From Candidatus Binatia bacterium (lineage in GTDB: Bacteria; Desulfobacterota; Binatia; HRBIN30), in assembly GCA_937925685.1 (NCBI GenBank), contig CALAMI010000015.1, positions 232,911 through 296,910 on the forward strand: DNA of 64,000 nt. The letters are read 5' to 3'. Each line of letters opens with the position of its first letter. Positions within the stretch are counted from its first letter, which is position 1. A program made the translations under genes and the position numbers. Below are positions 43,122-57,836 of this stretch, piece by piece. Below the pieces are notes generated by a model that was not told the DNA's origin, ran no database searches, and was given only the letters and a program-made list of their open reading frames with translations.

Positions 43122-43194
43122 AGGCGGCGAGCGGATTCGAACCGCTGCATCGAGGTTTTGCAGACCTCTCCCTTAGCCACTTGGGTACGCCGCC
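43122..43194 (-). tRNA. tRNA-Cys (GCA)
   Basis: A manual cloverleaf fold works. Acceptor stem GGCGGCG/CGCCGCC, anticodon stem GAGGT/ACCTC with loop CUGCAAA, T-arm AGCGG-TTCGAAT-CCGCT, and discriminator U73. Confidence 0.9.
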
Positions 43195-43976: not shown

Positions 43977-44050
43977 GCGGGTGTAGCTCAGCTGGCTAGA
44001 GCGTATGCTTGCCAAGCATAAGGTCGCCGGTTCGACCCCGGTCACCCGCT
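43977..44050 (+). tRNA. tRNA-Gly (GCC)
   Basis: Acceptor stem GCGGGTG/CACCCGC, D-stem GCTC/GAGC, anticodon stem TATGC/GCATA with loop UUGCCAA, and T-loop TTCGACC. Confidence 0.9.
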
Positions 44051-44680: not shown

Positions 44681-45658
44681 ATGGCCGATCGTCGAAACTC
44701 CCGACCAAACGACAAGACAAGGAATAGCGTGACTCGCAACCTCGGCGTAGCCGTCGCGCTCAGCACGATTGCGTTCGGATGTGCTGGCAAAAAACTCAAG
44801 ACTGCTGAGGAGTACTTTGCCGCGGCAAACGAGCATTTTCGCAGTGGCGCTTTCAGCGCCGCGACAGCCGAGTACCGTGAGCTACTCGACCAGCACCCGT
44901 TCAGCGATTTGGTCGAACCAGCCGAGTTACGCATTGCCCACGCCCAGTACTTGGATGGGAGGTTTGCCGAGGCTGTGGTCGCATTGACTGACTTTCAGCG
45001 CCGTCATCCGACCAGTCCCCACCTTCCGTTCGTCGGTTACCTGTTAGGCATGTGTTACGCCCGACAGATGCTCGCTTATGATCGTGATCAAACCGCCGCA
45101 CAAAATGCGCAAACTTACTTCCTCACAGTGGTTCGCCAGTTTCCCGATAGCCCGTACGCTGTCCTCGCACGGTCCGAGCTCAGGCGTTGTCGGCAACGCT
45201 TGGCACAACACGAGCTGTATATTGCCGAGTTCTACTGGAAGCGCGGCAATTGGAATGCGGCTGAAGCCCGCCTGGTCGACCTAGCTGCTCGCTACAGCGA
45301 CACCGAAGAGGCCGTCAGCGGGTTAATGCGGTTGGCACGATTCTATCGATCCCGCGGCTTACGGGACCGGGCTACACTGGCCTACCGTGCGGTGACGCAG
45401 TTGCGGCCGGGATCGACGCAAGCGATTCGCGCACAACGGGCGTTGCAAAAGCTAACCTCCGGGCCGACAGCCGTGGCAGCCGATCCCATCGACGTCCTTC
45501 TTGCACTAAACGGGCGCAGCCGGCTCGACCAGGTTTACGAAACCGCGCAAGTGCCGCTACCGCAGGCACCGCAACTGCCATCGCGATCCAGCGGTTTTCC
45601 GGCACCGGCGCTAGGTACCGGGTTCGATCCGTTTGGCCGCGGTCGAACCTACTATTAA
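44681..45658 (+). CDS. bamD: outer membrane protein assembly factor BamD (TPR lipoprotein)
   Basis: The lipobox is TIAFGC. Motifs: YLLGMCYARQM...FLTVVRQFPDSPYAVLARSELRRCRQRLAQHELYIAEFYWKRGNWNAA. Confidence 0.85.
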   Translation: MADRRNSRPNDKTRNSVTRNLGVAVALSTIAFGCAGKKLKTAEEYFAAANEHFRSGAFSAATAEYRELLDQHPFSDLVEPAELRIAHAQYLDGRFAEAVVALTDFQRRHPTSPHLPFVGYLLGMCYARQMLAYDRDQTAAQNAQTYFLTVVRQFPDSPYAVLARSELRRCRQRLAQHELYIAEFYWKRGNWNAAEARLVDLAARYSDTEEAVSGLMRLARFYRSRGLRDRATLAYRAVTQLRPGSTQAIRAQRALQKLTSGPTAVAADPIDVLLALNGRSRLDQVYETAQVPLPQAPQLPSRSSGFPAPALGTGFDPFGRGRTYY

Positions 45659-45700: not shown

Positions 45701-46420
45701 ATGCCTGCCGTGCCGAAGTTTCCACATGCCCGCGTCCTCGTCGTGGGGGTTGGCGGGTTGGGCTGTCCGGCCCTGCAGCTCCTCGCAGCCGCTGGGGTGG
45801 CGCACATCACCTTGCTGGATCCAGATCGAGTCTGTCGATCTAATCTCCACCGCCTGCTGCTGTTCGATGAGAGCGACATCGGCAAACCAAAAGCCGTGGT
45901 TGCGGCTGAAAAATTGTCTGCCCTGTTTCCTCAAACCCGCTTCGTTCCGCTACCGGCAGCTCTGGACGAAATCAATGCCCCGTCGCTGATCCCTGCGCAC
46001 GATTGGGTCATCGATGCCACAGACGGCTGGAACACTAAGCTCTGGCTTCATGACCGGGCGCTTTCTTACGGGCGCCCGGTGGCACACGCTGGCGCTGTCG
46101 GTTGGCAGGGTCAAGCCCTCACCGCGCTACCAAACGTGCCTGGGTGCTTGCGGTGTGCTTGCGGTGTCGCCGAGGACAGCGAGGAGGCATCTTGCCAGCA
46201 GGCGGGTATCATCCCGGGAGTCGTCCAGGTGCTTGGCGCCAGACTTGCCGCTGAGGTGATTTCCTGGCTGACTGGGCGTTTCGAGGCCCTGCTCGTGAGA
46301 AAGCTCCTGTACGTCGACGCGTACCGGATGCAGATGCGGGTGGTCCCGTTTACCGCCGATACGAATTGCCCTGTGTGCAGCCTTGCGACACGCTCATTTC
46401 CCACCGGGCCTACACCCTGA
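45701..46420 (+). CDS. ThiF/MoeB/HesA-family E1-like adenylyltransferase (motifs intact, no rhodanese domain)
   Basis: Motifs: VLVVGVGGLGCP (GxGxxG), DPDRVCRSNLHR, DATD, and two CxxC pairs (CLRC, CPVC) for the structural Zn. Confidence 0.85.
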   Translation: MPAVPKFPHARVLVVGVGGLGCPALQLLAAAGVAHITLLDPDRVCRSNLHRLLLFDESDIGKPKAVVAAEKLSALFPQTRFVPLPAALDEINAPSLIPAHDWVIDATDGWNTKLWLHDRALSYGRPVAHAGAVGWQGQALTALPNVPGCLRCACGVAEDSEEASCQQAGIIPGVVQVLGARLAAEVISWLTGRFEALLVRKLLYVDAYRMQMRVVPFTADTNCPVCSLATRSFPTGPTP

Positions 46421-46738
46421 CCAGCTTCGCCCCGCAGCGAACGGGCAGCCTCCCTTTGCTGCCTACAGAAAAGGCCCGAGCACCGGGGCTGGTCGAATCG
46501 CGGTCGAGCCTCGAAGAGATCGAGCCCCGATCGATGGGACAGGGAAGCAGAGGTGCCCACTTCATCTCCTCTCCTCGAAGAGCATGCAGTCGAGCGCAGG
46601 GCCCAGACGGACACGCGCACAGACAATGTCGGTTCCACTTGAAGGCTAACAAACAGGTCACTAGCGGTGCCTCACAAAAACGCCTTCCCCAATGACCTTC
46701 GTTTCCCTATGTGGGAAGACTACAAGGAGGACGAAGCT

Positions 46739-47020
46739 ATGAGTGTGCGCGTGAGAATCCCCACCCCTTTGCGTCGTTACACAGCGGGACAGGAAGAAGT
46801 TACCGCTTCAGGCACCACGGTGGCGACGATTTTAGAAGACTTGGAACGACGTCACCCGGGTATCAAGGAACGGATTTGCGACGAAGCCGGCAAAGTCCGC
46901 CGGTTCGTGAACATATACATAAATGGCGATGATATCCGTTTCTTAGACAGTCTGGAAACCCCAGTGAAAGACGGTGACGAGATTTCCATCGTTCCCGCCA
47001 TTGCGGGGGGCATAGAGTGA
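46739..47020 (+). CDS. MoaD/ThiS/CysO-type ubiquitin-fold sulfur-carrier protein ending ...AGG-IE
   Basis: Start at ATG 46739 (AAGGAGGA upstream). The 93-aa protein carries RRFVNIYINGDDIRFLDSLETPVKDGDEISIVPAIAGGIE. The Gly-Gly is followed by two extra residues before the stop. Confidence 0.8.
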   Translation: MSVRVRIPTPLRRYTAGQEEVTASGTTVATILEDLERRHPGIKERICDEAGKVRRFVNIYINGDDIRFLDSLETPVKDGDEISIVPAIAGGIE

Positions 47021-48024
47021 GCAAGCCGCCCCAGGCTGTGCGCCCGGGACAAACGTTACGGCCCCGCAAGGTCGAATCCGTACTGGACTTAGTTGGCAAC
47101 ACCCCTCTGATTGAAATCCGCAGAGTACGCGACGGGGTATGCCCGGGTGTGCGAATCTATGCCAAACTCGAAGGGTTGAACCCCGGTGGCTCGGTCAAGG
47201 ACCGACCTGCCGTTTGGATGGTGCGGGACGGTCTGCGGACGGGAAAGCTGCAACCGGGCAAGATCATTATCGACTCGACCTCTGGGAATACAGGCATCGC
47301 CCTTGCCATGACTGGAGCTGTGCTTGGCTATCCCGTCGAACTGGTGATGCCCGCTAACGTCAGCCAAGAGCGCAAGAAAATCGTCGCCGCTTATGGGGCC
47401 AAGATCATCCTCAGCGATCCCCTAGAGGGGTCCGACGGTGCTATCCGCTTGTGCCGTAAAATCCTTGCGGAAAATCCCGAACGCTACTTCAAGCCCGATC
47501 AATACTTCAACGAGGTCAATCCCCTCGCTCACTACCAAAGTACCGGCCCGGAGATCTGGCGCGACACTCGTGGTCAAATTACCCATTTCGTTGCCGGCAT
47601 CGGCACAGGGGGCACCATTATGGGCACGGGACGGTACCTCAAAGAGCAAAACCCAACCATTCAAGTCATCGCCGTCGAACCAGACGATGCCTGGCACGGC
47701 CTAGAGGGACTCAAACACATGGCTAGCTCCATCGTGCCAGGGATCTATCACGAGGAGGAACTCGACCGAAAAATCCCCGTCAGCACCGACGCAGCTTACG
47801 AGATGGTCTACCGCCTAGGTGAGGAAGAGGGATTGGTGATGGGTCAATCTTCAGGGGCTGCTATGGTGGGGGCACTCACCGTAGCCCGCGAACTCCGCGA
47901 AGGGGTCATCGTGGTAATTTTTCCCGATTTCGGCGACCGCTACCTCAGCACTAACTTATGGGTCGGTTGGCGCGAGCGACGCGCCCGCCTCGAACGTCTC
48001 TTGTCGGAGCGAAAAGAGCCGTGA
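47017..48024 (+). CDS. PLP-dependent cysteine synthase family (CysM/CysK-like; candidate thiocarboxylate-dependent sulfhydrylase)
   Basis: Motifs: GNTPLIEI...LEGLNPGGSVKDRPA (PLP Lys)...STSGNTGIALA...GIGTGGTIMG. The GTG start overlaps the carrier stop (GTGA). Confidence 0.85.
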   Translation: MSKPPQAVRPGQTLRPRKVESVLDLVGNTPLIEIRRVRDGVCPGVRIYAKLEGLNPGGSVKDRPAVWMVRDGLRTGKLQPGKIIIDSTSGNTGIALAMTGAVLGYPVELVMPANVSQERKKIVAAYGAKIILSDPLEGSDGAIRLCRKILAENPERYFKPDQYFNEVNPLAHYQSTGPEIWRDTRGQITHFVAGIGTGGTIMGTGRYLKEQNPTIQVIAVEPDDAWHGLEGLKHMASSIVPGIYHEEELDRKIPVSTDAAYEMVYRLGEEEGLVMGQSSGAAMVGALTVARELREGVIVVIFPDFGDRYLSTNLWVGWRERRARLERLLSERKEP

Positions 48025-48683
48025 ACGGCGCCATCGAACTGTCCGCAGAGCAACTCGAGCGGTATTCTCGGCAAATCCTGGTGCCGAACTTCGGCGGTCG
48101 GGGTCAGCAGCTTTTGTTGCGTACCGCAGTGGCCGTGTACGGCGTCGGATTATTGCCGGAGCGGTTAGCGCTTGGGCTGGCACGGAGCGGAACTGGTTAT
48201 GTTAACGTTTCCAAAAGCGTCGCTGAAAGGATTGCCCCGCGGATCGGTCCTGACACGCGTTTGGTCACCGATCCCACGCCCCACGACAGCCTCCTCTCGA
48301 TGCCGCTCTCCATCGACGCTGGCCTCACCGTCAAGGAATGGCATCGCTGCGTGGAGCCTGCAGCACGCGCCCACAACTTTGCGCTATGGTCACGCGCCCT
48401 GGGTTCCGTTGGGCTGGTTGGGGTCACGGTAGCGGACAAGCTACCAACGCTTTGCGCGGGTTGGTTCTTCGACTTTTTGCCCAAAGATCCCTCTCCCTCG
48501 ATGTACGAGAGTTGCGCTATCGAGTGGTCCGCCGCATGGACGAGCGCTTTAGCCCTGCGGCATCTTGCAAACCCTAGCCAGACGGGCGGTACAGTTCTTT
48601 ATCGCTACGAGGCAAAAACCGGCACAATCAGTGCATTTCTCGTCCCGGAGAATTTCCGCTGTGAGCATCGCGACCGTGAGTGA
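48021..48683 (+). CDS. degenerate ThiF/MoeB-like protein (pseudo-E1)
   Basis: GTG 48021 (GTGA overlap with the cysM-like stop). It keeps the N-terminal LSAEQLERYSRQILVP...GQQLL pattern. The nucleotide loop reads VYGVGLLPERL (no GxGxxG). No DxD...SNLxRQ, catalytic Asp or CxxC pairs are visible. Confidence 0.5.
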   Translation: MNGAIELSAEQLERYSRQILVPNFGGRGQQLLLRTAVAVYGVGLLPERLALGLARSGTGYVNVSKSVAERIAPRIGPDTRLVTDPTPHDSLLSMPLSIDAGLTVKEWHRCVEPAARAHNFALWSRALGSVGLVGVTVADKLPTLCAGWFFDFLPKDPSPSMYESCAIEWSAAWTSALALRHLANPSQTGGTVLYRYEAKTGTISAFLVPENFRCEHRDRE

Positions 48684-49938
48684 CCGGGAGAGTTGCCCCG
48701 GCAAAGACACCGAGCGCGGGGCGAGCATCGTCTCCCTCAAGGTTTCGACCCTTGTTCACGGCATTACGCTCGACGAAGCTCTCGAAGAGCGGCTTCGCCG
48801 CGAGGGGCATTGGCTCGCCGTCGGAACGGACCAGCACCGCCTGGAGCTTCGGCTTCCTGGCCGCATCGTCGTCACTCCTTTGGTGGTAAACAGTTGTGGC
48901 CGAGATACGCCTTGGCGGCTGACAGCGACCGATGGTGCGTGGTTTCTCGAGCGCGGTAGCGACCGGCACCGGGTGTGGCTGGAATCGCCTCCGTCCTTTT
49001 ACCGACAACGCACTAGTTCGGGACGGCGGGTTGGAGACTTCGCCCAATTATTTGGACGAACGCTGGTTCTGGGCGGGGCCCAAGCTTGCGGCTACAGCCT
49101 CTCTGGCATCGCTTGTCGCTTTTGCCGGGTCGGCTCCCGTGCCGAAAGCGAGCAAAAGTTCGGTATCACAGCGCACGAGGCCGCCGAAGCGTTGACCATC
49201 GCCAGTCGTGAGCGTTCGCTGGAGCACGTTCTTTTGCCGGCAGCATCGTTCGACGCCGAAGATGGCGGTGTCCGTGAAATCGAACCCCTCGTGAAGGCCG
49301 TTCGGCGGCACACCTCGGCACTCGTTCTTGCAGCGCTTCATCCCCCGCGTACCTTGCGCTGGATCGATCATGCCTACGCGATTGGCGTGGACGGACTTGC
49401 GTTCAATCTGGAAGTGCCTGACGTCGTAACCCTCGAGCGACTCTTACCCGGGCGGGCGCGATACCTCGGCCGTTCGCGTTATTACCAGGCGCTCCGGCAC
49501 GCAGGGAAGATTTTCCCCCGTGGGGCGGTGTGGACAGAACTACTCCTGGGGTCGGCGTCCGCCACCGAGCTGGCAAACTTCATCCAGGAGTTCACCAGCT
49601 GGGGGGTCATCCCCTTGCTGGTACCGGTGCGCCCAGATGCCACTGCTCGTCAGACGCCCTTACCTTTCGCGCCCACCCCAGCAGAAGTGCAACTTTTACT
49701 GGAGACCTTGTCAGATCGTCTCAACTGGACCAGCACCACCCTACCCTGGCTTCCCGAATGGCCACACCTACTGGGGCCCAGCGATGCTCTGCGAGAACCG
49801 CACTCGTACCGCCGCAACGGTTTCAGTCGAATGCTAGCAAATCACCTAGCGCTCTTTGCTGTGCGCAATCTCTCGCGCATTCGGCGTAGCTTACGCGTGA
49901 GAGATCTGGCCGATCATGAACTGGACTCGTCTAGCTAA
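48676..49938 (+). CDS. radical-SAM-like TIM-barrel protein with non-canonical Cys motif (C-x9-C-x2-C); function unknown
   Basis: The ORF has no in-frame ATG near its 5' end. GTG 48676 or 48661 overlaps the upstream stop. LVLGGAQACGYSLSGIACRFCRVG is followed by barrel-like strand/helix periodicity (EDGGVREI..., GVDGLAFNLE, ELLLG). The assignment is tentative. Confidence 0.4.
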   Translation: MSDRESCPGKDTERGASIVSLKVSTLVHGITLDEALEERLRREGHWLAVGTDQHRLELRLPGRIVVTPLVVNSCGRDTPWRLTATDGAWFLERGSDRHRVWLESPPSFYRQRTSSGRRVGDFAQLFGRTLVLGGAQACGYSLSGIACRFCRVGSRAESEQKFGITAHEAAEALTIASRERSLEHVLLPAASFDAEDGGVREIEPLVKAVRRHTSALVLAALHPPRTLRWIDHAYAIGVDGLAFNLEVPDVVTLERLLPGRARYLGRSRYYQALRHAGKIFPRGAVWTELLLGSASATELANFIQEFTSWGVIPLLVPVRPDATARQTPLPFAPTPAEVQLLLETLSDRLNWTSTTLPWLPEWPHLLGPSDALREPHSYRRNGFSRMLANHLALFAVRNLSRIRRSLRVRDLADHELDSSS

Positions 49939-49944
49939 GCCCCC

Positions 49945-51426
49945 ATGAATCCACCGCAATCTTCTCAGTCCACAACGGCTCCTGGTCCACGGTTTGTGGT
50001 CGACACTCGCCCACTTTGGCGTATCTTGCTGCCCCTATTCGGTTACTGGGGGCTCTGCCTGGTGGCAGCCGCGATTTTGTGGTGGAGCGTGAACGCCACC
50101 CCGCCGCAGGGCTTGTCGCCGCAAGGCCAACGCGCGCTCGCGGTGTTCTTTGTGTGTGTCCTCTTCTGGGTTCTGAACGTGCTCCCCCTGATGATCACCA
50201 GCCTACTTGCTATCGTACTCCTGCCACTCACAGGCGTGCTGACTGCCTCGCAGGCGTACGGTCTTTTCGGCAACGAAGCGCTGTTTTTCATCCTTGGCGC
50301 TTTCATCCTGGCGGCTTGCTTGATGCGGTCGGGACTCAGCACCCGCATTGCGCTAGCCATCCTAGATCGCTTTGGACGTACGCCCCGGGGCTTATTGCGA
50401 AGCGTGTTACTCCTTAACGTCGTGATGGCGTTTTTCATGTCCGAGCATGCGGTTGCAGCCATGAACTTTCCCATCATTGCCGAAATGACCAAGGTGCTGC
50501 GTTTACCGGGCCGAAGAAGCCATTATGGCAAGGCTTTGTTTCTTGCCATGGCTTGGGGATCGACCATTGGTGGCATCGCAACGTTGCTCGGCGGTGCGCG
50601 AGCGCCGCTAGCGCTTGGCATCTTGCGGGAAACGACCGGTAAGTCACTCTCCTTTTTCGAATGGAGCGTCGCGATCTTCCCCCTGGTCGTGGCTCTGACC
50701 GCCGTGGCCTATGCCCTGCTCGTTTGGTTTTTCCCCATCGACGTCGAAAACGTGAAGGCTGCTGACGAAGTCCTTCACGAGAAGCGGCTCCGCCTCGGCC
50801 GCATGCGCTATCAGGAGCGTGCCGTGGGACTAGTGATGCTCGGCACACTGGCTGGCTGGATTTTCCTCGGTGAGGAATTCGGCCTCGCCACGGTGGCCAT
50901 GGGCGCGGTGGTTTTATTGTTCTTGCTGCGGCTGGCACGCTGGAGCGAAATCGAAGGCTACGTCAACTGGGGAGTGCTCCTGATGTATGGTGGGGCCATT
51001 TGCCTTGGCTCCGCTCTCAACCGCACTGGGGCGGCAAGTTGGGTGGCACAAGCCACCGTCAGCGAATGGGCGTCGAATGGTTTCGCTGTCATTGTGGCAT
51101 TGTCCACCCTGTCGCTGTTGTTGACCGAGGCCATGAGCAATGCCGCCGTTGTGGCGATGCTTTTACCTATGGCTCTGGGAATTGCAGGGGAGTTTGGAAT
51201 CGATCCCCGCGTGGTCACGCTCGCCGTGGCCGTCCCGGCGGGACTGGCCACCACCCTGCCTATTGGTACACCCGCCAACGCCATCGCTTATTCGAGCGGC
51301 TATCTCGCCTTGCGTGACCTTGTCGTGCCGGGCGCCACCCTAGCGCTTTGCGCATGGATATTGTTTAACCTGATGGCCGTCCTGTATTGGCCTCTCTTGG
51401 GCTTGCCTGTGTGGGGTGGCGGATGA
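49945..51426 (+). CDS. SLC13/DASS-family anion permease (candidate sulfate or dicarboxylate transporter)
   Basis: At least 12 hydrophobic segments are visible. The two SNT/SNA-type hairpin motifs are FFMSEHAVAAM and LTEAMSNAAVVAML...PANAIAY. Confidence 0.75.
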   Translation: MNPPQSSQSTTAPGPRFVVDTRPLWRILLPLFGYWGLCLVAAAILWWSVNATPPQGLSPQGQRALAVFFVCVLFWVLNVLPLMITSLLAIVLLPLTGVLTASQAYGLFGNEALFFILGAFILAACLMRSGLSTRIALAILDRFGRTPRGLLRSVLLLNVVMAFFMSEHAVAAMNFPIIAEMTKVLRLPGRRSHYGKALFLAMAWGSTIGGIATLLGGARAPLALGILRETTGKSLSFFEWSVAIFPLVVALTAVAYALLVWFFPIDVENVKAADEVLHEKRLRLGRMRYQERAVGLVMLGTLAGWIFLGEEFGLATVAMGAVVLLFLLRLARWSEIEGYVNWGVLLMYGGAICLGSALNRTGAASWVAQATVSEWASNGFAVIVALSTLSLLLTEAMSNAAVVAMLLPMALGIAGEFGIDPRVVTLAVAVPAGLATTLPIGTPANAIAYSSGYLALRDLVVPGATLALCAWILFNLMAVLYWPLLGLPVWGGG

Positions 51427-51896
51427 GTCACGTGCTCTTACTGATCTCGCCGCGCTTTGGCTTCACCCGTTCCTTGGCCCGAGCCATGGAACTTGCGCGC
51501 AAGAACCAGGCGTCGCTTGTGGTAGCGGCCGTGATCCCGGATTCCCAGGTGGCTGCGTTGGCGACAACGCTCAGTGATGCAGCCTTTGTCGGTGAGAAAC
51601 TCAGTGCAGATGTCGTAGACCATCTTCGCACCGAGCTCGAGGCGCTTGCGAAGGAGCAGTTAAGAAGCGTGCACGAGCAAGCTTTGGCTGCGGGTGTGCC
51701 CGTGGTCACCCACGTGGTTGCGGCGGAGCCCATGGAAGTGGCCGAACAAATGATAAGCCGCTACGCAGTGAAAACCGTCGTTGTCGCTATACCGGCTCGT
51801 CCTTGGTTTGAAAAACTGTGGAGTCGCAGTGGGACATTGGATTGGACGGAGGAGCTCGGTTGCCCCGTCGAAATGGTGGAAGAAGAAAGGAGTTAA
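51423..51896 (+). CDS. universal-stress-protein-like (adenine-nucleotide alpha-hydrolase fold) protein
   Basis: ATG 51423 (ATGA overlap with the permease stop). The ~157-aa protein has a USP-like layout (VLLLISP...LVVAAVIP...VKTVVVAIP). The ATP-binding G-x2-G-x9-G(S/T) motif is not obvious. Confidence 0.5.
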   Translation: MSHVLLLISPRFGFTRSLARAMELARKNQASLVVAAVIPDSQVAALATTLSDAAFVGEKLSADVVDHLRTELEALAKEQLRSVHEQALAAGVPVVTHVVAAEPMEVAEQMISRYAVKTVVVAIPARPWFEKLWSRSGTLDWTEELGCPVEMVEEERS

Positions 51897-51899
51897 ATC

Positions 51900-53165
51900 G
51901 TGCCCGATCTCGTGCCTGTTCATGGGGGTCTGGATGCCCCGGTCAATCGTACGATTCCCTTATCCCGGCGTAAACAGTTTTTCCGTGAAGCCGCAGAGTT
52001 GCCCAAGGTGGAAGTCAGTCGGGCCGATCTATCGACCGTGTACCGTATCGCCGACGGTACGTTGTCGCCCTTAAGTGGGCCGATGGATGAAGACACCTGG
52101 CATTACGTCTTGGACCACGATGCCCTCGATTTCGGCTTTCGCCACTATGCGTGGACGGCGCCGATTTCCTTTCCCGTCGCCGACGACGAAGTAAAACGCT
52201 TGCAAGTTGGCCGCTCGGCCGCGCTGGTCTACGAGGGAACCCCAATAGCGATCGTGCGTGTGACGAGCGTGTTCGAGTGGGACAAGCCCAAGCACATCGA
52301 AAGATTCTATGGAACTCGTCGCACCGATCATCCCGGCGCCAGGATGATTCTCGAAGACCCGCGGACGAAATTGTTCGGGGGCGAACTTTGGGCTCTACCG
52401 CAAGAGATCGATCCCGAATACGGGGAGTACCTCTTGTCGCCTCGACAAGTTCGGACTCTGATTGCCGAGCGCAAGTGGGAACGCGCGCTCGCCTTCCAGA
52501 CTCGCAACCCCCTCCATCGAGCGCACGAATACGCTCTAGTGGCCGGTGTCGAACGACTCACCCGCGAAGGATACTTTACCGGGGTGGTTCTCAACCCGCT
52601 CGTCGGGGAGCTCAAAGAAGACGACGTGCCTGCGCGCGTGCGTATGCGGTGTTACCGTACCCTGCACGACCTCAAGTTGCTCGGTAAGGGCGACAAGGAC
52701 GAACAGCTTTGGCAAGAGCGCGGCTACGATTTAACGGAAGTGTTCGAACTCGTCGCCCTGGACATGAAGATGTTGTACGGCGGCCCCAAAGAGGCGGTCA
52801 TGCATGCCATCTATCGGCAAAACCTGGGTTTCACCGATATCATCATTGGGCGTAAGCACGCTGACGCTCCGTACGATGACGGCACTCCTATCTGGGGAGA
52901 CTTCGATGCTCAAGAAATTTTTCACCACCTCCGCGGCGAGCTGCGGATTCGACCCTGCAACGTGGGCTTCGCCGCGTACTTTGAAAGTGTCGGCCGCGTC
53001 GATCTGCTGGATCACCATCCGGGGGAGAAACCAGTTTCCATTTCCGGTTCGAGAATCCGCGAAATGCTGACGAAGGGCGAACGGCCGGACGAGCGCATCC
53101 TACGACCAGAAATTGCCGATGTCCTTATTGCTTACTATCGGGAGCGACAAACCACCGGCCGCTAA
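51900..53165 (+). CDS. sat: sulfate adenylyltransferase (ATP sulfurylase)
   Basis: FQTRNPLHRAHEYAL is the HxxH-type motif. The N-terminus is PUA-like. The GRD(H)AG motif reads IIGRKHAD here. Confidence 0.85.
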   Translation: MPDLVPVHGGLDAPVNRTIPLSRRKQFFREAAELPKVEVSRADLSTVYRIADGTLSPLSGPMDEDTWHYVLDHDALDFGFRHYAWTAPISFPVADDEVKRLQVGRSAALVYEGTPIAIVRVTSVFEWDKPKHIERFYGTRRTDHPGARMILEDPRTKLFGGELWALPQEIDPEYGEYLLSPRQVRTLIAERKWERALAFQTRNPLHRAHEYALVAGVERLTREGYFTGVVLNPLVGELKEDDVPARVRMRCYRTLHDLKLLGKGDKDEQLWQERGYDLTEVFELVALDMKMLYGGPKEAVMHAIYRQNLGFTDIIIGRKHADAPYDDGTPIWGDFDAQEIFHHLRGELRIRPCNVGFAAYFESVGRVDLLDHHPGEKPVSISGSRIREMLTKGERPDERILRPEIADVLIAYYRERQTTGR

Positions 53166-53176
53166 TCCGTCGCAGT

Positions 53177-53452
53177 TCACGGGGTAGGGGGCAGGTTCAA
53201 CTCGACGCTGATTCCGAAGAACTCGGTCAACAGGCGGTACAACAACACCAGCGCAACCAGCAGGGTTGCGAGCGCGGCGACCGCCACACCGCTAAGCAAA
53301 GCTAGTGACAGCACGGAGCCTACGGCCACCAAGGGTGTGATCCAGATCGAGACCTCCCCCACAGGCCCCCAAATGGCCCACAGCCGGCGTGCAGTGAACC
53401 ACGCATCGCGGCCAGCAGCGAACAGCCGAAGCAAGCCCTCTAGGTCAGTCAT
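53177..53452 (-). CDS. small two-TM membrane protein, hypothetical
   Basis: The 91-aa ORF has two clear hydrophobic helices. It is the last gene of the ECF sigma operon direction. Confidence 0.4.
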   Translation of the reverse strand: MTDLEGLLRLFAAGRDAWFTARRLWAIWGPVGEVSIWITPLVAVGSVLSLALLSGVAVAALATLLVALVLLYRLLTEFFGISVELNLPPTP

Positions 53453-53499: not shown

Positions 53500-53991
53500 T
53501 TAGTCAATCGTGTCGGCCCCGATGGATAAGATAAGGACTCCGTCAGGGTGACGTGGCCCACCAACCAAGAGCGTTCCGTGGTTTCGTAACGCAAGCGAGG
53601 TATCCACGATGGGCCGTGCCCCTTCGAGCACGAGCACTTTCATCGCGATCCGCCCATTACGGAATTCACGCGGAATCACGAGCACGTACCGCCCGCCAGG
53701 GATGTCGAAACTTGCCTTTGCACCCCAAGCCACTCTCTGGCGCTCCTCTTTCACCAGTTGGTACGACGTGTACGGAAACAGGTGGTTGAACTGCTGCCGC
53801 AAGGCGACTAGCCGCGGGTCAAAAGTCCGCCCAGAATTGCTGGCAACAACCGCACCAATGCGCACCTCGACCGCTGGCACGGAGTGAAGTACGGTCTGGG
53901 CTGGGCTACGCACGTCCATCTGCGCAGCGGCTCGCTCAACACCCGCCAGACAGCAAACGGTACTGGCCAACACGAAGGATAGCGGTCTCAC
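53500..53991 (-). CDS. secreted protein of unknown function (ECF-sigma operon member)
   Basis: Start reset to GTG 53991 (GTGA overlap with the anti-sigma stop; GGAGGA upstream). The signal peptide is RPLSFVLASTVCCLAGVERAAA. The upstream 150 aa of track ORF 53500..54435 overlap the anti-sigma gene out of frame. Confidence 0.5.
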   Translation of the reverse strand: MRPLSFVLASTVCCLAGVERAAAQMDVRSPAQTVLHSVPAVEVRIGAVVASNSGRTFDPRLVALRQQFNHLFPYTSYQLVKEERQRVAWGAKASFDIPGGRYVLVIPREFRNGRIAMKVLVLEGARPIVDTSLALRNHGTLLVGGPRHPDGVLILSIGADTID

Positions 53992-54554
53992 GGTTCGGTT
54001 CCTCCTGCTCCAGGCAATTCCTCGCTGACCCACAAAACGGTGGTGTGATGCTGCCAGTCGTCCATCACTGCAACCGAGTTCACGTCGGCTTCTAAAAAGT
54101 CGATCAACGCCGGTGGCTCCAGGCCAGCGAGAACCGTGGTAGGGCTGGTCGGACCAGTGCGCGGTTGAACCCGCAACAACAACAGCGTCGTGAGGGTGAC
54201 CAAAACCACCAATGCCAGCGCCGGCCAAAGCACCTGCGGCTGCCATCTCCACTCGGTCGCAGCGCCATACCAACGCTGCCACCAAGGCACGCGCACCTCT
54301 CGCTCGGGCAAGCGGGCGAGAATTCGTGACCACAAATCTGGAGCTGTGATGCCAGCCAGTTGCCGTTCCACGTGCTCTCGCAACATTGCCTGCAACCGCT
54401 CGAGGCGTTGCAGCTCCCGATCGCACCGCGGACATCTGGCTCCGTGCGCAGCCACTGCCTGTACCAGGTGTGCTTCCAGCTCACCATCGGCGAACAACGG
54501 CAGCATCGCTTGGGCATCGGGACAGCTTAGACTTTCTTGTTTCTCTAGCGGCAC
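53988..54554 (-). CDS. anti-sigma factor (zf-HC2 type, single TM)
   Basis: HGARCPRC gives the H-x3-C-x2-C motif. The TM is VLWPALALVVLVTLTTLLLL. It lies directly downstream of the ECF sigma gene. Confidence 0.7.
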   Translation of the reverse strand: MPLEKQESLSCPDAQAMLPLFADGELEAHLVQAVAAHGARCPRCDRELQRLERLQAMLREHVERQLAGITAPDLWSRILARLPEREVRVPWWQRWYGAATEWRWQPQVLWPALALVVLVTLTTLLLLRVQPRTGPTSPTTVLAGLEPPALIDFLEADVNSVAVMDDWQHHTTVLWVSEELPGAGGTEP

Positions 54555-54578
54555 GAAGCAGCTCCTCGCGCGTGTAGT

Positions 54579-55160
54579 TTACAGGAGATCCTTCAGTCTG
54601 CTTTGAAGTTTTTTTCGCGCATAATGCAACCGGCTCATCACCGTCCCTTTGGAGCACTGCATCACGCGGCTGATCTCCTCGTACGATAGACCTTCGATTT
54701 CCCGCAGGAGTATGACGGCGCGATGGTACGGCGTCAACTCGGCAATGGCTTCCGCAACTCGACTACCGATTTCACGGGACTCGGCCTGACGCACAGGATC
54801 GGTCATCCCCTCCTCGTCGCCCAGGAATTCCTCATAAGGCTCTTCAGACTCCGGGACACCGAACTCTTCCTGCAAACCCACCGTCGGGTTGCGCCGCTGA
54901 TAACGGCGAAGGTCGATAGCACGATTGACCGTGATCCGGAATAACCACGTGTAAAAGCTCGATTCGCCCTTAAAACCCTCGAGGTTTTCGTACGCCTTCA
55001 CAAAGGTGTCCTGCACAATTTCCATCGCGTCTTCCGGGTTGTTCACCATTCCCAGGGCGATCGACATGACTTTTCTTTGGTAACGCTCGAACAATTCCCG
55101 AAAAGCTTCCTTGTTTCCCTTGCGGGCCAGCTCCACGAGCTCAACGTCAGTTCGTTCCAC
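54579..55160 (-). CDS. ECF-type RNA polymerase sigma-70 factor (RpoE-like)
   Basis: Region 2: FRELFERYQRKVMSIALGMVNNPEDAMEIVQDTFVKAY...FYTWLFRITVNRAID. Region 4: LREIEGLSYEEISRVMQCSKGTVMSRLHYARKKL. Confidence 0.9.
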   Translation of the reverse strand: MERTDVELVELARKGNKEAFRELFERYQRKVMSIALGMVNNPEDAMEIVQDTFVKAYENLEGFKGESSFYTWLFRITVNRAIDLRRYQRRNPTVGLQEEFGVPESEEPYEEFLGDEEGMTDPVRQAESREIGSRVAEAIAELTPYHRAVILLREIEGLSYEEISRVMQCSKGTVMSRLHYARKKLQSRLKDLL

Positions 55161-55208: not shown

Positions 55209-57836
55209 TCAAGGATGAGCCTCAGCCCAATTGCGTCCGATACCGATATCCACCACCAGCGGCACCCGCAGGTGCACAACCCCTTCCATGACCTCGCGCG
55301 CAAGGGTGCGCATCTCTTCGGCTTGCGGCTCGGCGACTTCAAACACGAGTTCGTCGTGAACTTGCAGGACCATTCGCGCATCCAGCCTTCGTTCCCTGAT
55401 CGCGCGATCTAGAGCGACCATGGCCAGCTTGATGACGTCGGCCGCCGACCCTTGAACGGGCGTGTTCAACGCAATTCGCTCTGCAGCTTGTGCAACAACC
55501 CGGTCCGGACTTCCCAATTCAGGCACCGAGCGCCGCCGGCCCATCAACGTCACTACGTACCCCCGCTCTCGAGCTTGCCGGACAACCGTGTCCAAGTACG
55601 CCCGCACCCCGGCGTAGCGGGCAAAGTACTGGCTTATGTAGCGCTGCGCGTCCCCAACGGAAATTCCCAACTCCTTCGCCAACGAAGCAGCCCCCATGCC
55701 ATAAAGAACTCCAAAGTTGATCATCTTGGCTACGCGGCGCTGGTCGCGGGTGACCGCAGAGGGCGGCACACCGAAAACCTCGGCGGCAGTCCGCGTATGA
55801 ATATCTTCTCGGTTTTCGAACGCGGAGCACAGTACGGCATCGCCAGAGAAGTGAGCCAACAAACGCAATTCAATTTGCGAGTAGTCGGCTACCACCAGAC
55901 AATAGCCGCTCGGAGCCGTAAAGCAGCGGCGAAGCAACACGCCTTCATCGCCCCGTACCGGGATGTTTTGGAGATTCGGATCGGTGGAGCTCAGTCGACC
56001 CGTAGCGGTGACACACTGATTGAAGGTGGTGTGCAGCCGCCCCGTGTGGGCGTCGACGGAGGCGAGCAAACCCTCCACGTACGTCGAGCGCAATTTCGCC
56101 ACCGTGCGGTATTCCAAGATCTTACCCGGCAAGGGGTGAACTGCCGCTAGCTTGGAAAGTACATTGACGTCGGTCGACAGGCCAGTCCTGCCTCGGCGAA
56201 TCCCTCGCGTCGGCAACTGCAGTCTTCCGAACAGTACCTCGCGTAATTGCTGCGGGGACGCAATATTGAACGCCGTGCCGGCAAGCCCGTAAATTTCCTC
56301 AGTGAGGCGCAGCAAGCGGCGCTCTAACTCCCGACCCACCTCCCGCAACGCGGCAGTGTCCAAGTACACGCCTTTCGCCTCCATCCGGGCCAACACTCCC
56401 ACGAGCGGAGCTTCGACCTCATGAAACAGCCGGTCCATCTCTCGCTCGGCCAAAAGCGCCCGCAAGATAGGCACCAACTCTGGTAACACCCGTAATCCCG
56501 AAACCGTCCCTACAACGTCCCCGCGGAAGCGGATGATCTGGCAACCGAGATAGAAACTGGTCACCTCTTCCAAAGACGTAGGGAGGGGTGCCTCCAAGAG
56601 ATACGCTGCCACCATGGTGTCAAAGATCCCAGAGGTGTCCCAATCCTCGGCACCCGCTTTCCTCAAGTCACACTTAAAATCGTGGGCTAGCATCGCGGTG
56701 GGCCGGTGCGCTTGCACTCGTCGGAGAAGCTCATGGGGAGGAAGAAGCTGAGCCGGGACGAGCAGCGCCTGATCAGACCGGCCGGCCAACACCGTTCCCA
56801 GGTCGAGCCCTTCGCCGATGACGGCCACCGCCACCTCGCCATTGGCCGCAAGCCCCTGCAAGAACACCTCGATATCTGTCGGTTGTTTCGCAACCTCATA
56901 CCCTGAGGGCTCAGACTTTCTCTCCTCGGGCAATTCACGCAACAACGAGTAGAAACCCAGTTTCACAAACAATCGTCGCAGGTGGACGGAGTCCATGGGC
57001 CTGACCCGTAAGCTTTCCGAGCCAAGGTCGAGCGGAACATCGCAGCGCACCGAAGCCAACTGCCGCCCGAGCCGCGCAGCCGCAGCCTGTTCATGCAGAG
57101 CGTCCGCAACACGACGCGCGGCTCGGAGTTCCCGCCACGCCCGAATCTCCTCGACGTGCGCTAGCACCTGCTCCAAGGATCCATAGCGGGCAAGCAAAGC
57201 CTGCGCCGTTTTTTCCCCTACTCCTCTGACCCCGGGAATATTATCCACGCTATCGCCCACGAGCGCGATGAAATCTGCGATTTGCTGCGGTGGAACCCCG
57301 AACTTTTTTTGCACTTCGCTGGCGTCGTACCAGCGGTCGTACAGCGTGTCCCAAACACGAACCCGGCCATCCACCAGTTGCAACAAATCTTTGTCGCCGC
57401 CCACGATGACCACTGGACGCTCAAGCTCTGTCCACCGCTTTGTTATCGTGGCAATGACATCATCGGCTTCGACGCCAGGTATTTGCAGCACCGTAAGGCC
57501 ACAGGCTGCGGCAATTTCCCGCACGAACGGCAGTTGGGTAACCAACTCCTCCGGTGTTGTCGGTCGCGTCGCCTTGTATTCGGCGAACAGTTCGGCGCGA
57601 AACGTTTTGCCCGGGGCGTCGAAAACAGCCGCTGCGTAAGTTGGCTTCGCTTCGCGCAACAAACGCAAAAGCATTTTGGTAAAACCGAAGACGGCGTGCA
57701 CCGGTTGGCCTTGAGGACTCGTGAGCCGCGGCAGTGCGAAGAACGCTCGGTAGACATAGGAGTTGGCATCAATAAGATAGAGGGTGTCTGCCGCGCCCAG
57801 CATTTGCCTGGCGCAGGCTAACAAACTGTCCTGCAA
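55209..57836 (-). CDS. polA: DNA polymerase I
   Basis: The 875-aa protein has a 5'-nuclease N-terminus (LYLIDANSYVYRAFFA), motif A (VVADYSQIELRLLAH), and motifs B/C (RRVAKMINFGVLYGM, LQVHDELVFE). Confidence 0.95.
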   Translation of the reverse strand: MQDSLLACARQMLGAADTLYLIDANSYVYRAFFALPRLTSPQGQPVHAVFGFTKMLLRLLREAKPTYAAAVFDAPGKTFRAELFAEYKATRPTTPEELVTQLPFVREIAAACGLTVLQIPGVEADDVIATITKRWTELERPVVIVGGDKDLLQLVDGRVRVWDTLYDRWYDASEVQKKFGVPPQQIADFIALVGDSVDNIPGVRGVGEKTAQALLARYGSLEQVLAHVEEIRAWRELRAARRVADALHEQAAAARLGRQLASVRCDVPLDLGSESLRVRPMDSVHLRRLFVKLGFYSLLRELPEERKSEPSGYEVAKQPTDIEVFLQGLAANGEVAVAVIGEGLDLGTVLAGRSDQALLVPAQLLPPHELLRRVQAHRPTAMLAHDFKCDLRKAGAEDWDTSGIFDTMVAAYLLEAPLPTSLEEVTSFYLGCQIIRFRGDVVGTVSGLRVLPELVPILRALLAEREMDRLFHEVEAPLVGVLARMEAKGVYLDTAALREVGRELERRLLRLTEEIYGLAGTAFNIASPQQLREVLFGRLQLPTRGIRRGRTGLSTDVNVLSKLAAVHPLPGKILEYRTVAKLRSTYVEGLLASVDAHTGRLHTTFNQCVTATGRLSSTDPNLQNIPVRGDEGVLLRRCFTAPSGYCLVVADYSQIELRLLAHFSGDAVLCSAFENREDIHTRTAAEVFGVPPSAVTRDQRRVAKMINFGVLYGMGAASLAKELGISVGDAQRYISQYFARYAGVRAYLDTVVRQARERGYVVTLMGRRRSVPELGSPDRVVAQAAERIALNTPVQGSAADVIKLAMVALDRAIRERRLDARMVLQVHDELVFEVAEPQAEEMRTLAREVMEGVVHLRVPLVVDIGIGRNWAEAHP

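Follow-up and report, generated by a model that had tools for sequence, protein, structure and literature searches.

A conserved sulfur-assimilation cluster around a CysO-like carrier in Candidatus Binatia, with a putative split E1 and a variant radical-SAM-like protein

Introduction

A few organisms are known to make cysteine or homocysteine by way of a protein thiocarboxylate, and in these routes the least understood step is where the sulfur on the carrier comes from. The CysO-CysM-Mec-MoeZ pathway of Mycobacterium tuberculosis combines a carrier ending in Gly-Gly (CysO), a cysteine synthase (CysM), a JAMM protease (Mec) and an E1 with a rhodanese domain (MoeZ); the HcyS/HcyD/HcyF/MetY genes of Wolinella are likewise clustered with sulfate-assimilation genes. 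Here we describe a locus within a 64,000-nucleotide window of Candidatus Binatia bacterium DNA (assembly GCA_937925685.1, contig CALAMI010000015.1, positions 232,911 to 296,910 of the forward strand; "the window" is this whole stretch, and all coordinates refer to it), where a gene for a ThiF/MoeB-type E1 is followed by seven closely packed genes. Set beside its relatives, the locus stands out as the Binatia-type version of a conserved sulfur-assimilation cluster around a CysO-like carrier, and it includes two genes of special interest, one for a degenerate E1 (pseudo-E1) and one for a variant radical-SAM-like protein (SAM, S-adenosylmethionine).

A thiocarboxylate route to homocysteine formed by MetM, MetO, Mec and MoeZ was reported by Hasebe et al. 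(2024), as related in the GapMind 2026 preprint, where MetM is described as a threonine-synthase homologue. The threonine-synthase homologue seen in loci related to the present one fits MetM of the Streptomyces MetM/MetO system, but it is absent from the window's clade; conversely, the described MetM/MetO and Wolinella systems are without a radical-SAM-like protein, a pseudo-E1 or a DASS permease.

Results

Gene content and likeness to the CysO pathway

The features of the locus are listed below (aa, amino acids; PLP, pyridoxal phosphate).

45701..46420, + strand: catalytic E1, ThiF/MoeB-type adenylyltransferase, 239 aa (PF00899 match)
46639..46667, + strand: promoter-like block TTGAAG-N17-TAGCGG, conserved in the alignment of E1-carrier spacers
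46739..47020, + strand: CysO/SAMP1-like sulfur-carrier protein, 93 aa, ending AIAGG-IE (PF02597 match)
47017..48024, + strand: CysM/CysK-family PLP-dependent cysteine synthase, 335 aa (PALP and TIGR01136)
48021..48683, + strand: pseudo-E1, 220 aa (partial ThiF/MoeB match; model with a ThiF fold)
48661..49938, + strand: variant radical-SAM-like Fe-S protein, 425 aa, or 420 aa from 48676 (NF045502 similarity)
49945..51426, + strand: DASS-family anion permease, 493 aa (PF00939 and TIGR00785)
51423..51896, + strand: USP-like small protein, 157 aa (weak Usp match)
51900..53165, + strand: ATP sulfurylase (sulfate adenylyltransferase, Sat), 421 aa (PF01747 and PUA_2)

All eight open reading frames (ORFs) of an earlier first-pass annotation, which had been made from the letters of the window alone, were found again on the + strand at the same positions. 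Its family assignments were borne out by profile searches, with the USP-like protein below threshold and the radical-SAM-like protein without a Pfam match. As in the M. tuberculosis pathway, the carrier is a full-length CysO homologue, a beta-grasp protein of the ThiS/MoaD family with a Gly-Gly; a CysM-family enzyme adjoins it and is translationally coupled to it; the E1 is of ThiF type; and a JAMM protease is found in related clusters. The locus differs from that pathway in that its E1 lacks a rhodanese domain and seems to be divided between a catalytic and a pseudo-E1 part, in that no Mec/JAMM gene lies in the window and residues follow the Gly-Gly of the carrier, in that its CysM resembles the M. 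tuberculosis enzyme no more closely than it does generic O-acetylserine sulfhydrylase (OASS), and in the addition of the variant radical-SAM-like protein, DASS, USP and Sat. The CysO-like carrier, CysM, DASS and Sat together support the earlier proposal that the locus makes cysteine through a protein thiocarboxylate and links this to the uptake and activation of sulfate.

Recurrence of the cluster across genomes

A word-index search of 5.8 billion proteins with the radical-SAM-like protein gave 14 matches, all of the Binatia type, five of which keep the whole block YfiO-E1-ThiS-CysM-pseudoE1-rSAM-DASS-USP-Sat at 43–69% identity (rSAM, radical-SAM-like); the word-index search repeated with the family profile gave no proteins beyond those already found. 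An exhaustive profile search widened the family to 59 representative clusters with E values under 1e-30, and many of these are full length. A species-level genome collection (one genome per species) was covered by two scans seeded with sub-alignments A1 and A5. The second scan yielded 95 matched stretches, from which 80 loci were kept, and the two scans together gave 85 loci, three of which stand outside the counts (two repeats of other loci, plus the distant homologue L014). Six-frame ORFs of the loci were labelled by phmmer and jackhmmer with the window proteins and recurrent unlabelled neighbours as seeds, and the labels were then confirmed with Pfam and NCBIfam.

The cluster recurs in about 80 species-level genomes, assigned by their submitters to Binatia, Myxococcota, Thermodesulfobacteriota, Pseudomonadota, Nitrospirota, a Chloroflexota-type group and others, that is, to at least six phyla. 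Its consensus order, with variable members in square brackets, is [E1] [MetM-like, with Zn ribbon] [small NIR_SIR sulfite reductase] ThiS [NIL] CysM [JAMM/Prok-JAB] (E1 or pseudo-E1) rSAM DASS [USP] [adenosine 5'-phosphosulfate (APS) reductase] [Sat]. Neighbours were counted where at least 4.5 kb of sequence flanked the radical-SAM-like gene, in 60 loci on the upstream side and in 62 on the downstream side:

ThiS, upstream: 59/60 loci
CysM, upstream: 54/60 loci
ThrC-like (MetM-like), upstream: 42/60 loci
NIL, upstream: 36/60 loci
pseudo-E1, upstream: 36/60 loci
JAB/JAMM, upstream: 16/60 loci
sulfite reductase, upstream: 8/60 loci
DASS, directly downstream: at least 48/62 loci
Sat, downstream: 38/62 loci

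Where DASS does not follow the radical-SAM-like gene, no alternative transporter was found among the downstream genes. The fullest arrangement is that of the L064-type clusters of Thermodesulfobacteriota, which hold DASS, Sat, APS reductase, sulfite reductase, E1, ThiS, CysM, a MetM-like gene, JAB, the radical-SAM-like gene and USP, a complete sulfate-to-cysteine/homocysteine set; the APS reductase is of the thioredoxin-dependent kind (TIGR02055, 253.8 bits, above cutoff) and is accompanied by a NIR_SIR match (L064/L072). The MetM-like protein of related loci is a threonine-synthase homologue with an N-terminal Zn ribbon, encoded between E1 and ThiS (TIGR00260, 284 bits). At the other extreme, minimal Myxococcota clusters consist of E1, ThiS, pseudo-E1, JAMM, rSAM and DASS alone, CysM and Sat being absent from the vicinity. 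Because relatives add MetM-like, NIL, JAMM, APS reductase and small sulfite reductase genes to the same core, the cluster is, as judged from its gene content, one of primary sulfate assimilation by way of a protein thiocarboxylate.

These data also bear on two other accounts of the locus, namely that it makes a thio-metabolite or that its gene order is a chance juxtaposition. In the pathways for thioquinolobactin and pyridine-2,6-dithiocarboxylic acid (PDTC), too, an E1-like enzyme works with a ThiS-like carrier that has additional residues at its C-terminus, and a pathway of this type had been offered as an alternative in the first-pass annotation. However, the same core is found in some 80 species-level genomes, and its recurrent neighbours are MetM-like, CysM, APS reductase, sulfite reductase and Sat, all pointing to primary sulfur assimilation; acyl-AMP ligases, siderophore genes and tailoring genes are not among them, and the setting typical of the PDTC and thioquinolobactin clusters (carrier and E1 amid secondary-metabolite tailoring, ligase and transport genes) was not seen. 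The thio-metabolite alternative was consequently dropped. Lack of the seven-gene arrangement in every related genome had been named as the sign of a chance juxtaposition; the block proved to be conserved in relatives. Either account is now very improbable.

The relatives' loci further support the earlier view that the pseudo-E1 and radical-SAM-like genes are real, conserved extras without a described role. That the two form a conserved pair did not hold, because the pseudo-E1 co-varies with an N-terminally truncated E1, whereas the radical-SAM-like gene co-varies with ThiS and DASS and has no pseudo-E1 at its side in clusters of the Pseudomonadota and Thermodesulfobacteriota types.

A putative split E1

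The catalytic E1 matches ThiF (PF00899) at 5e-56 and carries the active-site set of the homodimeric ThiF/MoeB E1s (GxGGxG, Asp62, Arg73, Lys86, Asp130 and two CxxC Zn motifs), seen here as GVGGLG, LLDPD, NLHR, KPK, DATD and two CxxC pairs. It starts 11 residues before the Rossmann strand, without the N-terminal helix that bears the arginine (Arg) finger, and aligns to E. coli MoeB from residue 31 on, to ThiF from 26 and to UBA2 from 18. A longer ORF is impossible, since only 42 nucleotides (nt) separate the gene from its upstream neighbour, a YfiO/BamD-like lipoprotein gene. Of the MoeZ model it matches only the adenylation domain (NF005902 positions 42-262 of 392), and of UBA1, UBA2 and UBA3 likewise only the adenylation domain, so that a catalytic-Cys domain and a ubiquitin-fold domain (UFD) are both lacking from its 239 aa; the earlier statement that this E1 has no rhodanese domain was correct.

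In the pseudo-E1 the nucleotide-binding loop is gone, as are the catalytic Asp and the Arg/Lys that bind ATP, and only remnants of the Cys motifs are left. Its residues 4-63 alone match ThiF/MoeB/UbaA models (19.9 bits, under cutoff), and the invariant columns of its family are mainly L12, E13, R14, R17, Q18, I19, L20, G25 and Q29 (the "LERYSRQIL" helix), with a few others. The AlphaFold model (predicted local distance difference test, pLDDT, 83) has a complete ThiF fold; its top Foldseek match is ThiF 1zud (E 8.6e-12, TM about 0.7), and SAE1 1y8q_A, the SUMO E1 subunit that is not catalytic, can be superposed on it as well. The Arg finger and the active site, which share one polypeptide in E1s of the MoeB Arg14/ThiF Arg11 type, are here on different ones, the helix being present only on the pseudo-E1. 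The locus thus encodes a catalytic ThiF-fold subunit and a non-catalytic one whose motifs complement each other, as in heterodimeric E1s.

The same complementarity was seen across the loci. A catalytic E1 without the finger is accompanied by a finger-bearing pseudo-E1 in 40 loci, in nine the catalytic E1 bears the finger itself and no pseudo-E1 is present, and there is no locus with a finger-bearing E1 together with a pseudo-E1 (Fisher test 6e-8, a value that overstates the independence of these related loci). The three apparent exceptions to the pattern include L036, an intermediate, and L093, with a variant motif. The pseudo-E1 takes the gene position of the intact E1 of Thermodesulfobacteriota-type clusters, and in Myxococcota it has shrunk to about 130 aa, little beyond the Arg-finger helix. 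In most related loci E1 is contiguous with the cluster, in the order E1-MetM-like-ThiS.

The intermediate E1 of L036 (6145-6987 of that locus) adjoins the radical-SAM-like gene and keeps the finger helix, the GxGxxG loop and LVDGD, with the catalytic Asp motif lost (VDTAPGHD); it is possibly a snapshot of the decay of an E1 into a pseudo-E1.

Taken together, the complementary motifs and the 40/9/0 pattern of loci lend strong comparative support to an E1 split in two, in which catalytic E1 and pseudo-E1 would form an obligate heterodimer with a single active site. Arg14 of MoeB and Arg11 of ThiF are Arg fingers that come from the neighbouring subunit (PMC13139853), and the equivalent Arg17 of the pseudo-E1 would be supplied in trans to the catalytic E1. 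There is a heterodimer precedent in yeast, where Tcd1 gives the Arg finger to the catalytic Tcd2 (PMC13139853). By analogy we propose a trans-Arg arrangement as in SAE1/UBA2, NAE1 (APPBP1)/UBA3 and Tcd1/Tcd2. The likeness to these pairs lies in a catalytic subunit that starts at the Rossmann loop (UBA2 is also without the helix) and in a second subunit that has no ATP binding, keeps the RxxRQ finger helix and, as modelled here, superposes on SAE1. The differences are that there is no catalytic-cysteine domain, UFD or E2 here, that the substrate would be a sulfur carrier and not a protein modifier, that the subunits are minimal (239 + 220 aa, with about 130 aa for the second in Myxococcota), and that the heterodimer is read from the genes.

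A different role for the pseudo-E1 would be that of a carrier-docking adaptor, which presents ThiS to the radical-SAM-like protein or to CysM as do inactive E1-like domains in cyclodehydratases of ribosomally synthesized and post-translationally modified peptides. Its gene lies directly upstream of the radical-SAM-like gene, with an overlap of 8-29 nt in all Binatia-type loci; it sits where Thermodesulfobacteriota-type clusters have an intact E1; and the ThiF fold is kept over its full length, all of which would suit an adaptor. An adaptor should, however, conserve a ThiS-binding surface, and what is conserved is the Arg-finger helix, which makes up most of the Myxococcota form of about 130 aa. 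The presence of a pseudo-E1 moreover tracks the loss of the helix from the catalytic E1 perfectly in the 40/9/0 pattern, and the radical-SAM-like protein of Pseudomonadota-type clusters does without a pseudo-E1. We consider the adaptor unlikely and prefer the split E1.

The variant radical-SAM-like protein

The radical-SAM-like protein has no Pfam match and scores 120.5 bits against the NF045502 variant_rSAM model (cutoff 125) and 93 bits against TIGR04043 (cutoff 303.7). Orthologues from the same type of cluster pass both NF045502 (153-169 bits) and Pfam PF04055 (31.7-36.5 bits, cutoff 29.5). The description of the protein as TIGR04043-like was right as to the kind of similarity, but membership in that family (MSMEG_0568 family) is contradicted by the score and by a gene context of sulfur assimilation rather than of the nitrilase (Nit1C) cluster.

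In place of the canonical Cx3Cx2C motif of radical-SAM enzymes, the protein has Cx8CxxC (C138, C147 and C150, within ACGY-x6-CRFC, ACGY..CRFCRVGSR), which is invariant in Binatia and at least 90% conserved in 30 diverse relatives; the residue that precedes the last Cys is still aromatic, as in radical-SAM enzymes. Other blocks conserved throughout the family are DGG, HPP, WIDxxYAxGVD, PGRARxxGRxRY, FPxGxV and a basic C-terminal RRxLRV tail (RRSLRVR here). The best solved relatives of the family profile, both weak, are ThiH (E 0.0025) and lipoyl synthase LipA (E 0.025), the blocks that align with LipA being CRFC, DxxDGG and xNxE, and one orthologue touches LipS2 (1e-6), far below cutoff. The protein is thus like LipA, LipS2 and ThiH in its core blocks and like NF045502 in that its relatives pass the cutoff, and by analogy ThiH also acts alongside ThiS and ThiF; it differs from radical-SAM enzymes in the cysteine spacing, a distinct N-terminal beta domain and the RRxLRV tail. 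In the AlphaFold model (pLDDT 73) a beta-rich domain at the N-terminus leads into a barrel-like core of alternating strands and helices. Only three cysteines are conserved in the family, so the auxiliary-cluster cysteines of LipA are lacking. These features point weakly to one three-cysteine [4Fe-4S] site, with a presumably open iron, in a LipA/ThiH-like core.

Gene fusions tie the protein to two neighbours. In P0041 (575 aa) a Prok-JAB/desampylase-like domain is N-terminal to the radical-SAM-like domain, and in P0066 (881 aa), P0105 and P0167 (the latter two being predicted gene calls) the radical-SAM-like domain stands at the N-terminus of a DASS permease. Sequence association of this kind argues weakly that the protein is an obligatory, coupled partner of the C-terminal machinery of the carrier (carrier and JAMM) and of the permease. 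We tentatively picture the protein as transferring inorganic sulfur to the adenylated carrier and so standing in for the MoeZ rhodanese; the gene association and the three-cysteine cluster are the two grounds for this view. Across the 94 loci just one rhodanese domain was found, in L092, and the cluster E1s measure 240-280 aa. A role as substitute for APS reductase or sulfite reductase was rejected for the family as a whole, as L064-type clusters hold CysH and sulfite reductase as well as the radical-SAM-like gene.

Two other roles were weighed on the same evidence. In the first, the protein would be a LipA-like radical sulfur inserter, with the carrier thiocarboxylate as donor, a thiol metabolite as product and DASS moving substrate or product, cysteine and homocysteine being parallel outputs. 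The sulfur-related LipA, LipS2 and ThiH are indeed its nearest characterised profile relatives; CysM and Sat are missing from the surroundings of the minimal Myxococcota clusters; the JAMM-rSAM fusion recalls how CysM and Mec are related; and DASS proteins often carry dicarboxylates. On the other hand, there are only three invariant cysteines and no LipA-type auxiliary cluster, Sat in most clusters and CysH with sulfite reductase in some point to sulfate as the DASS substrate, and no further biosynthetic genes recur in the neighbourhoods. We give sulfur insertion into a metabolite a low probability.

In the second, the protein would be regulatory, a SAM- or redox-sensing Fe-S domain that gates DASS together with USP and NIL and so puts uptake under end-product control. 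Three representative clusters contain a direct fusion of it to the permease, the pathway ends in SAM, and the cluster also contains USP and NIL proteins, as a rule regulatory modules that bind a ligand (in MetN, the NIL domain binds methionine). Yet the 420 aa contain many catalytic-looking residues that are strongly conserved between phyla, the carrier rather than the permease is indicated by the JAMM fusion and by the linkage to ThiS in 59/60 loci, and in several loci the radical-SAM-like gene adjoins Sat with no DASS. Regulation is accordingly quite improbable as the main role, and sulfur mobilisation at the carrier is kept as the preferred one.

More distant relatives were also encountered. 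L014 (7812-9101 of that locus, from Vicinamibacterales) encodes a radical-SAM relative with 27% identity that passes Pfam Radical_SAM and lies beside Alternative Complex III genes (NrfD-like, ActD); it was rejected as a cluster member, being of a different subfamily and in an unrelated context. Distant variant radical-SAM proteins are fused to ATP-grasp (P0128, P0162), GNAT (P0116, rSAM + GNAT) and PadR (P0137, PadR + rSAM) domains, the GNAT fusion recalling the Nit1C cluster; from its domain partners, the wider variant radical-SAM family is functionally diverse.

Carrier, CysM and the uptake genes

The carrier matches ThiS (PF02597) at 1.7e-19 and passes the NF041918 SAMP1 model (67.6 bits, cutoff 60); over its full length it matches CysO of M. 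tuberculosis (3dwg_C, 9e-26) and of A. orientalis (4n6e_B, 6e-26). Its C-terminus is AGG-IE and not GG, that is, two residues extend beyond the Gly-Gly. AIAGG is invariant among the orthologues, most of which have a variable tail of 1-5 residues after GG, a minority ending exactly at GG. As the carrier ends in GG-IE, a C-terminal protease is required in the source genome.

A NIL domain follows the carrier in the same polypeptide in three other loci, L044 (at 5433-5948), L053 and L054 (ThiS 5-91, NIL 100-162), which puts the Gly-Gly end inside the chain, so that its release by proteolysis is required; elsewhere a free-standing NIL protein is encoded between ThiS and CysM or between CysM and pseudo-E1.

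CysM matches PALP at 8e-73, passes TIGR01136 cysKM (357.9 bits, cutoff 344), just misses TIGR01138 cysM (384.5, cutoff 394) and contains the SVKDR PLP-lysine motif. Among solved structures it is nearest to plant OASS and enterobacterial CysM (about 247 bits), with M. tuberculosis CysM at 207 bits.

The DASS permease (PF00939 at 1.4e-62; TIGR00785 269.6 bits, over cutoff) is a probable sulfate importer by its family and gene context; bacterial DASS sulfate transporters have been characterised (PMC5840216). Sat matches PF01747 at 1e-57, PUA_2 at 1.4e-29 and NF003166 with 288.8 bits, and the QTRNPLHRAHE motif is present. The USP-like protein falls below the Usp cutoff (1.5e-3, 19.5 bits), and the G-2x-G-9x-G(S/T) ATP motif was not obvious on reading its translation; orthologues at the same position pass (43.8 and 32.5 bits).

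No tblastn match to JAMM, CysH, sulfite reductase, MetM or NIL was found anywhere in the 64-kb window, nor was there a JAMM motif in any plausible gene within it. The first-pass annotation had called JAMM, APS reductase and sulfite reductase missing; this is true of the window, but not as a general trait, since other lineages have all three in the cluster, and for that reason they are probably encoded elsewhere in the source genome. The carrier-trimming protease in particular must be encoded outside the window, because the carrier tail needs removal and the window holds no JAMM. The MetM-like gene has been lost in the window's clade, with a spacer of 318 nt remaining.

Gene spacing, a possible promoter and neighbouring genes

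The tight spacing noticed earlier (overlaps of 4-8 nt or gaps of at most 6 nt) was confirmed base by base. The carrier/CysM and CysM/pseudo-E1 junctions are each a GTGA overlap (-4 nt) and the DASS/USP junction is an ATGA overlap (-4 nt) that couples the two genes translationally; rSAM/DASS is +6 nt and USP/sat +3 nt. The pseudo-E1/rSAM junction is -8 nt with the start at 48676 that was originally chosen for the radical-SAM-like gene (48676-49938, 420 aa). That ORF stands, but its start is more likely the GTG at 48661, because the 425 aa so obtained equal the length of a 99%-identical public protein (P0001), because the N-terminus MSIATVSD then aligns with MSTATASE of the HR30 orthologue (P0002), and because the resulting 23-nt overlap with pseudo-E1 fits that of relatives (23-29 nt).

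The carrier gene lies 318 nt downstream of E1. When the E1-carrier spacers of six loci were aligned, the block at 46639..46667 was the only conserved one besides the ribosome-binding site; it sits about 75-100 nt 5' of the carrier gene and, from its sequence, is possibly a promoter at which the seven-gene operon starts. No Rfam riboswitch or leader matched the 318-nt spacer, whether at the gathering threshold or with E allowed up to 1. A scan of the operon for consensus promoters and terminators gave none above shuffled expectation, and no notable internal terminator.

Upstream of the cluster, the YfiO/BamD-like tetratricopeptide-repeat lipoprotein gene (44681-45658, + strand) precedes E1, a pairing seen in 37/60 related loci; outer-membrane assembly (YfiO/BamD) and E1 have no obvious functional tie. 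Genes for tRNA-Cys(GCA) (43122-43194, - strand) and tRNA-Gly(GCC) (43977-44050, + strand) lie about 2-3 kb upstream, and the nearness of a tRNA-Cys to a cysteine-synthesis cluster may be a coincidence. Downstream, a predicted membrane protein of 91 aa (53177-53452, - strand) is convergent with the end of sat. Homologues of about 100 aa are found at the same spot in at least 24 related loci, and this conserved position may represent synteny of the lineage and not function. It is followed by an extracytoplasmic function (ECF) sigma factor with a zf-HC2 anti-sigma gene (53988-55160, - strand) and then by DNA polymerase I (55209-57836, - strand); the ECF sigma/anti-sigma and DNA polymerase I genes also follow the cluster in HR30 and KatS3mg077, which indicates long-range synteny in the Binatia clade.

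Discussion

The pathway that we propose would run as follows. DASS would bring in sulfate, and Sat would turn it into APS; reduction to sulfide would be carried out by enzymes encoded elsewhere in the source genome, for which Thermodesulfobacteriota clusters have CysH and sulfite reductase. A protease from outside the window would remove the C-terminal IE of the carrier, whereupon the E1 would adenylate the Gly-Gly end, and the adenylate would become a thiocarboxylate. The radical-SAM-like protein would act at the C-terminus of the carrier, putting the inorganic sulfur derived from the permease and from reduction onto the adenylated carrier. CysM would then use the thiocarboxylate to form a carrier-cysteine adduct, and hydrolysis would free cysteine.

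A number of observations weigh against this explanation. For the E1, the co-occurrence statistic is inflated by shared ancestry, the split cases being mostly Binatia and allied metagenome-assembled genomes, and what we infer of an E1/pseudo-E1 heterodimer comes from sequences and a single-chain model. The Arg finger was reported to be non-essential in MoeB and ThiF (PMC13139853), and hence loss of the helix need not make an E1 dependent on a partner. The catalytic E1 gene also stands outside the coupled operon, 318 nt upstream of it, and could serve molybdopterin or thiamin synthesis as well. For the radical-SAM-like protein, the window sequence is just under every curated radical-SAM cutoff, the cluster-binding loop of its model has a pLDDT below 50, and Foldseek against the PDB gave generic TIM barrels (DusB, DHPS, pyruvate carboxylase) and weak radical-SAM matches (NifB, CysS; E above 1e-4). 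A MoeZ-like E1-rhodanese fusion is encoded downstream of DASS in L092 (9632-10777), a locus that also has a pseudo-E1 and the radical-SAM-like gene, and this weakens the idea that the radical-SAM-like protein replaces a rhodanese; similarly, L064-type clusters have an enzyme for every canonical step and leave no obvious gap for the protein to fill. Finally, the substrate of the DASS permease is putative, and may be sulfate, thiosulfate or a dicarboxylate.

With these points counted, the explanation as a whole, a sulfur-assimilation cluster with a split E1 and with sulfur mobilisation at the carrier by the radical-SAM-like protein, is given a probability of about 0.6. A bolder combination is held tentatively, with the odds against it: that the radical-SAM-like protein is a new sulfur-mobilising enzyme which is docked or fused to the permease and loads the carrier directly, and, jointly with this, that bacteria have an obligate heterodimeric E1 for a sulfur carrier.

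The literature searched, which lacked most subscription journals so that absence from it is not proof, held no description of the cluster, of a role for the radical-SAM-like family or of a split sulfur-carrier E1. The variant radical-SAM-like protein, the DASS/USP uptake module and, in many lineages, the pair of catalytic and pseudo-E1 appear to go beyond any described version of the pathway. For annotation, the pseudo-E1 and the radical-SAM-like protein are at present "hypothetical", and MetM-like genes are likely mislabelled as threonine synthase.

A radical-SAM-like protein that is almost always encoded beside the carrier, and at times fused to the protease or the permease, points to an undescribed component of sulfur assimilation. 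As to the E1, one orthologous cluster spans intact homodimer-type E1s, the intermediate of L036 and complementary catalytic/pseudo pairs, and so provides a natural experiment in E1 evolution. This series mirrors the step thought to have produced the eukaryotic heterodimeric E1s, and it can show if the Arg finger, dispensable in MoeB and ThiF, turns essential once it resides on a partner. If the proposal is true, loading of the carrier by the radical-SAM-like protein would replace the relays of rhodanese and cysteine desulfurase, a previously unknown step of sulfur assimilation in several phyla, and the bacterial heterodimeric E1 would be a prokaryotic counterpart of the architecture of the eukaryotic SUMO and NEDD8 E1s.

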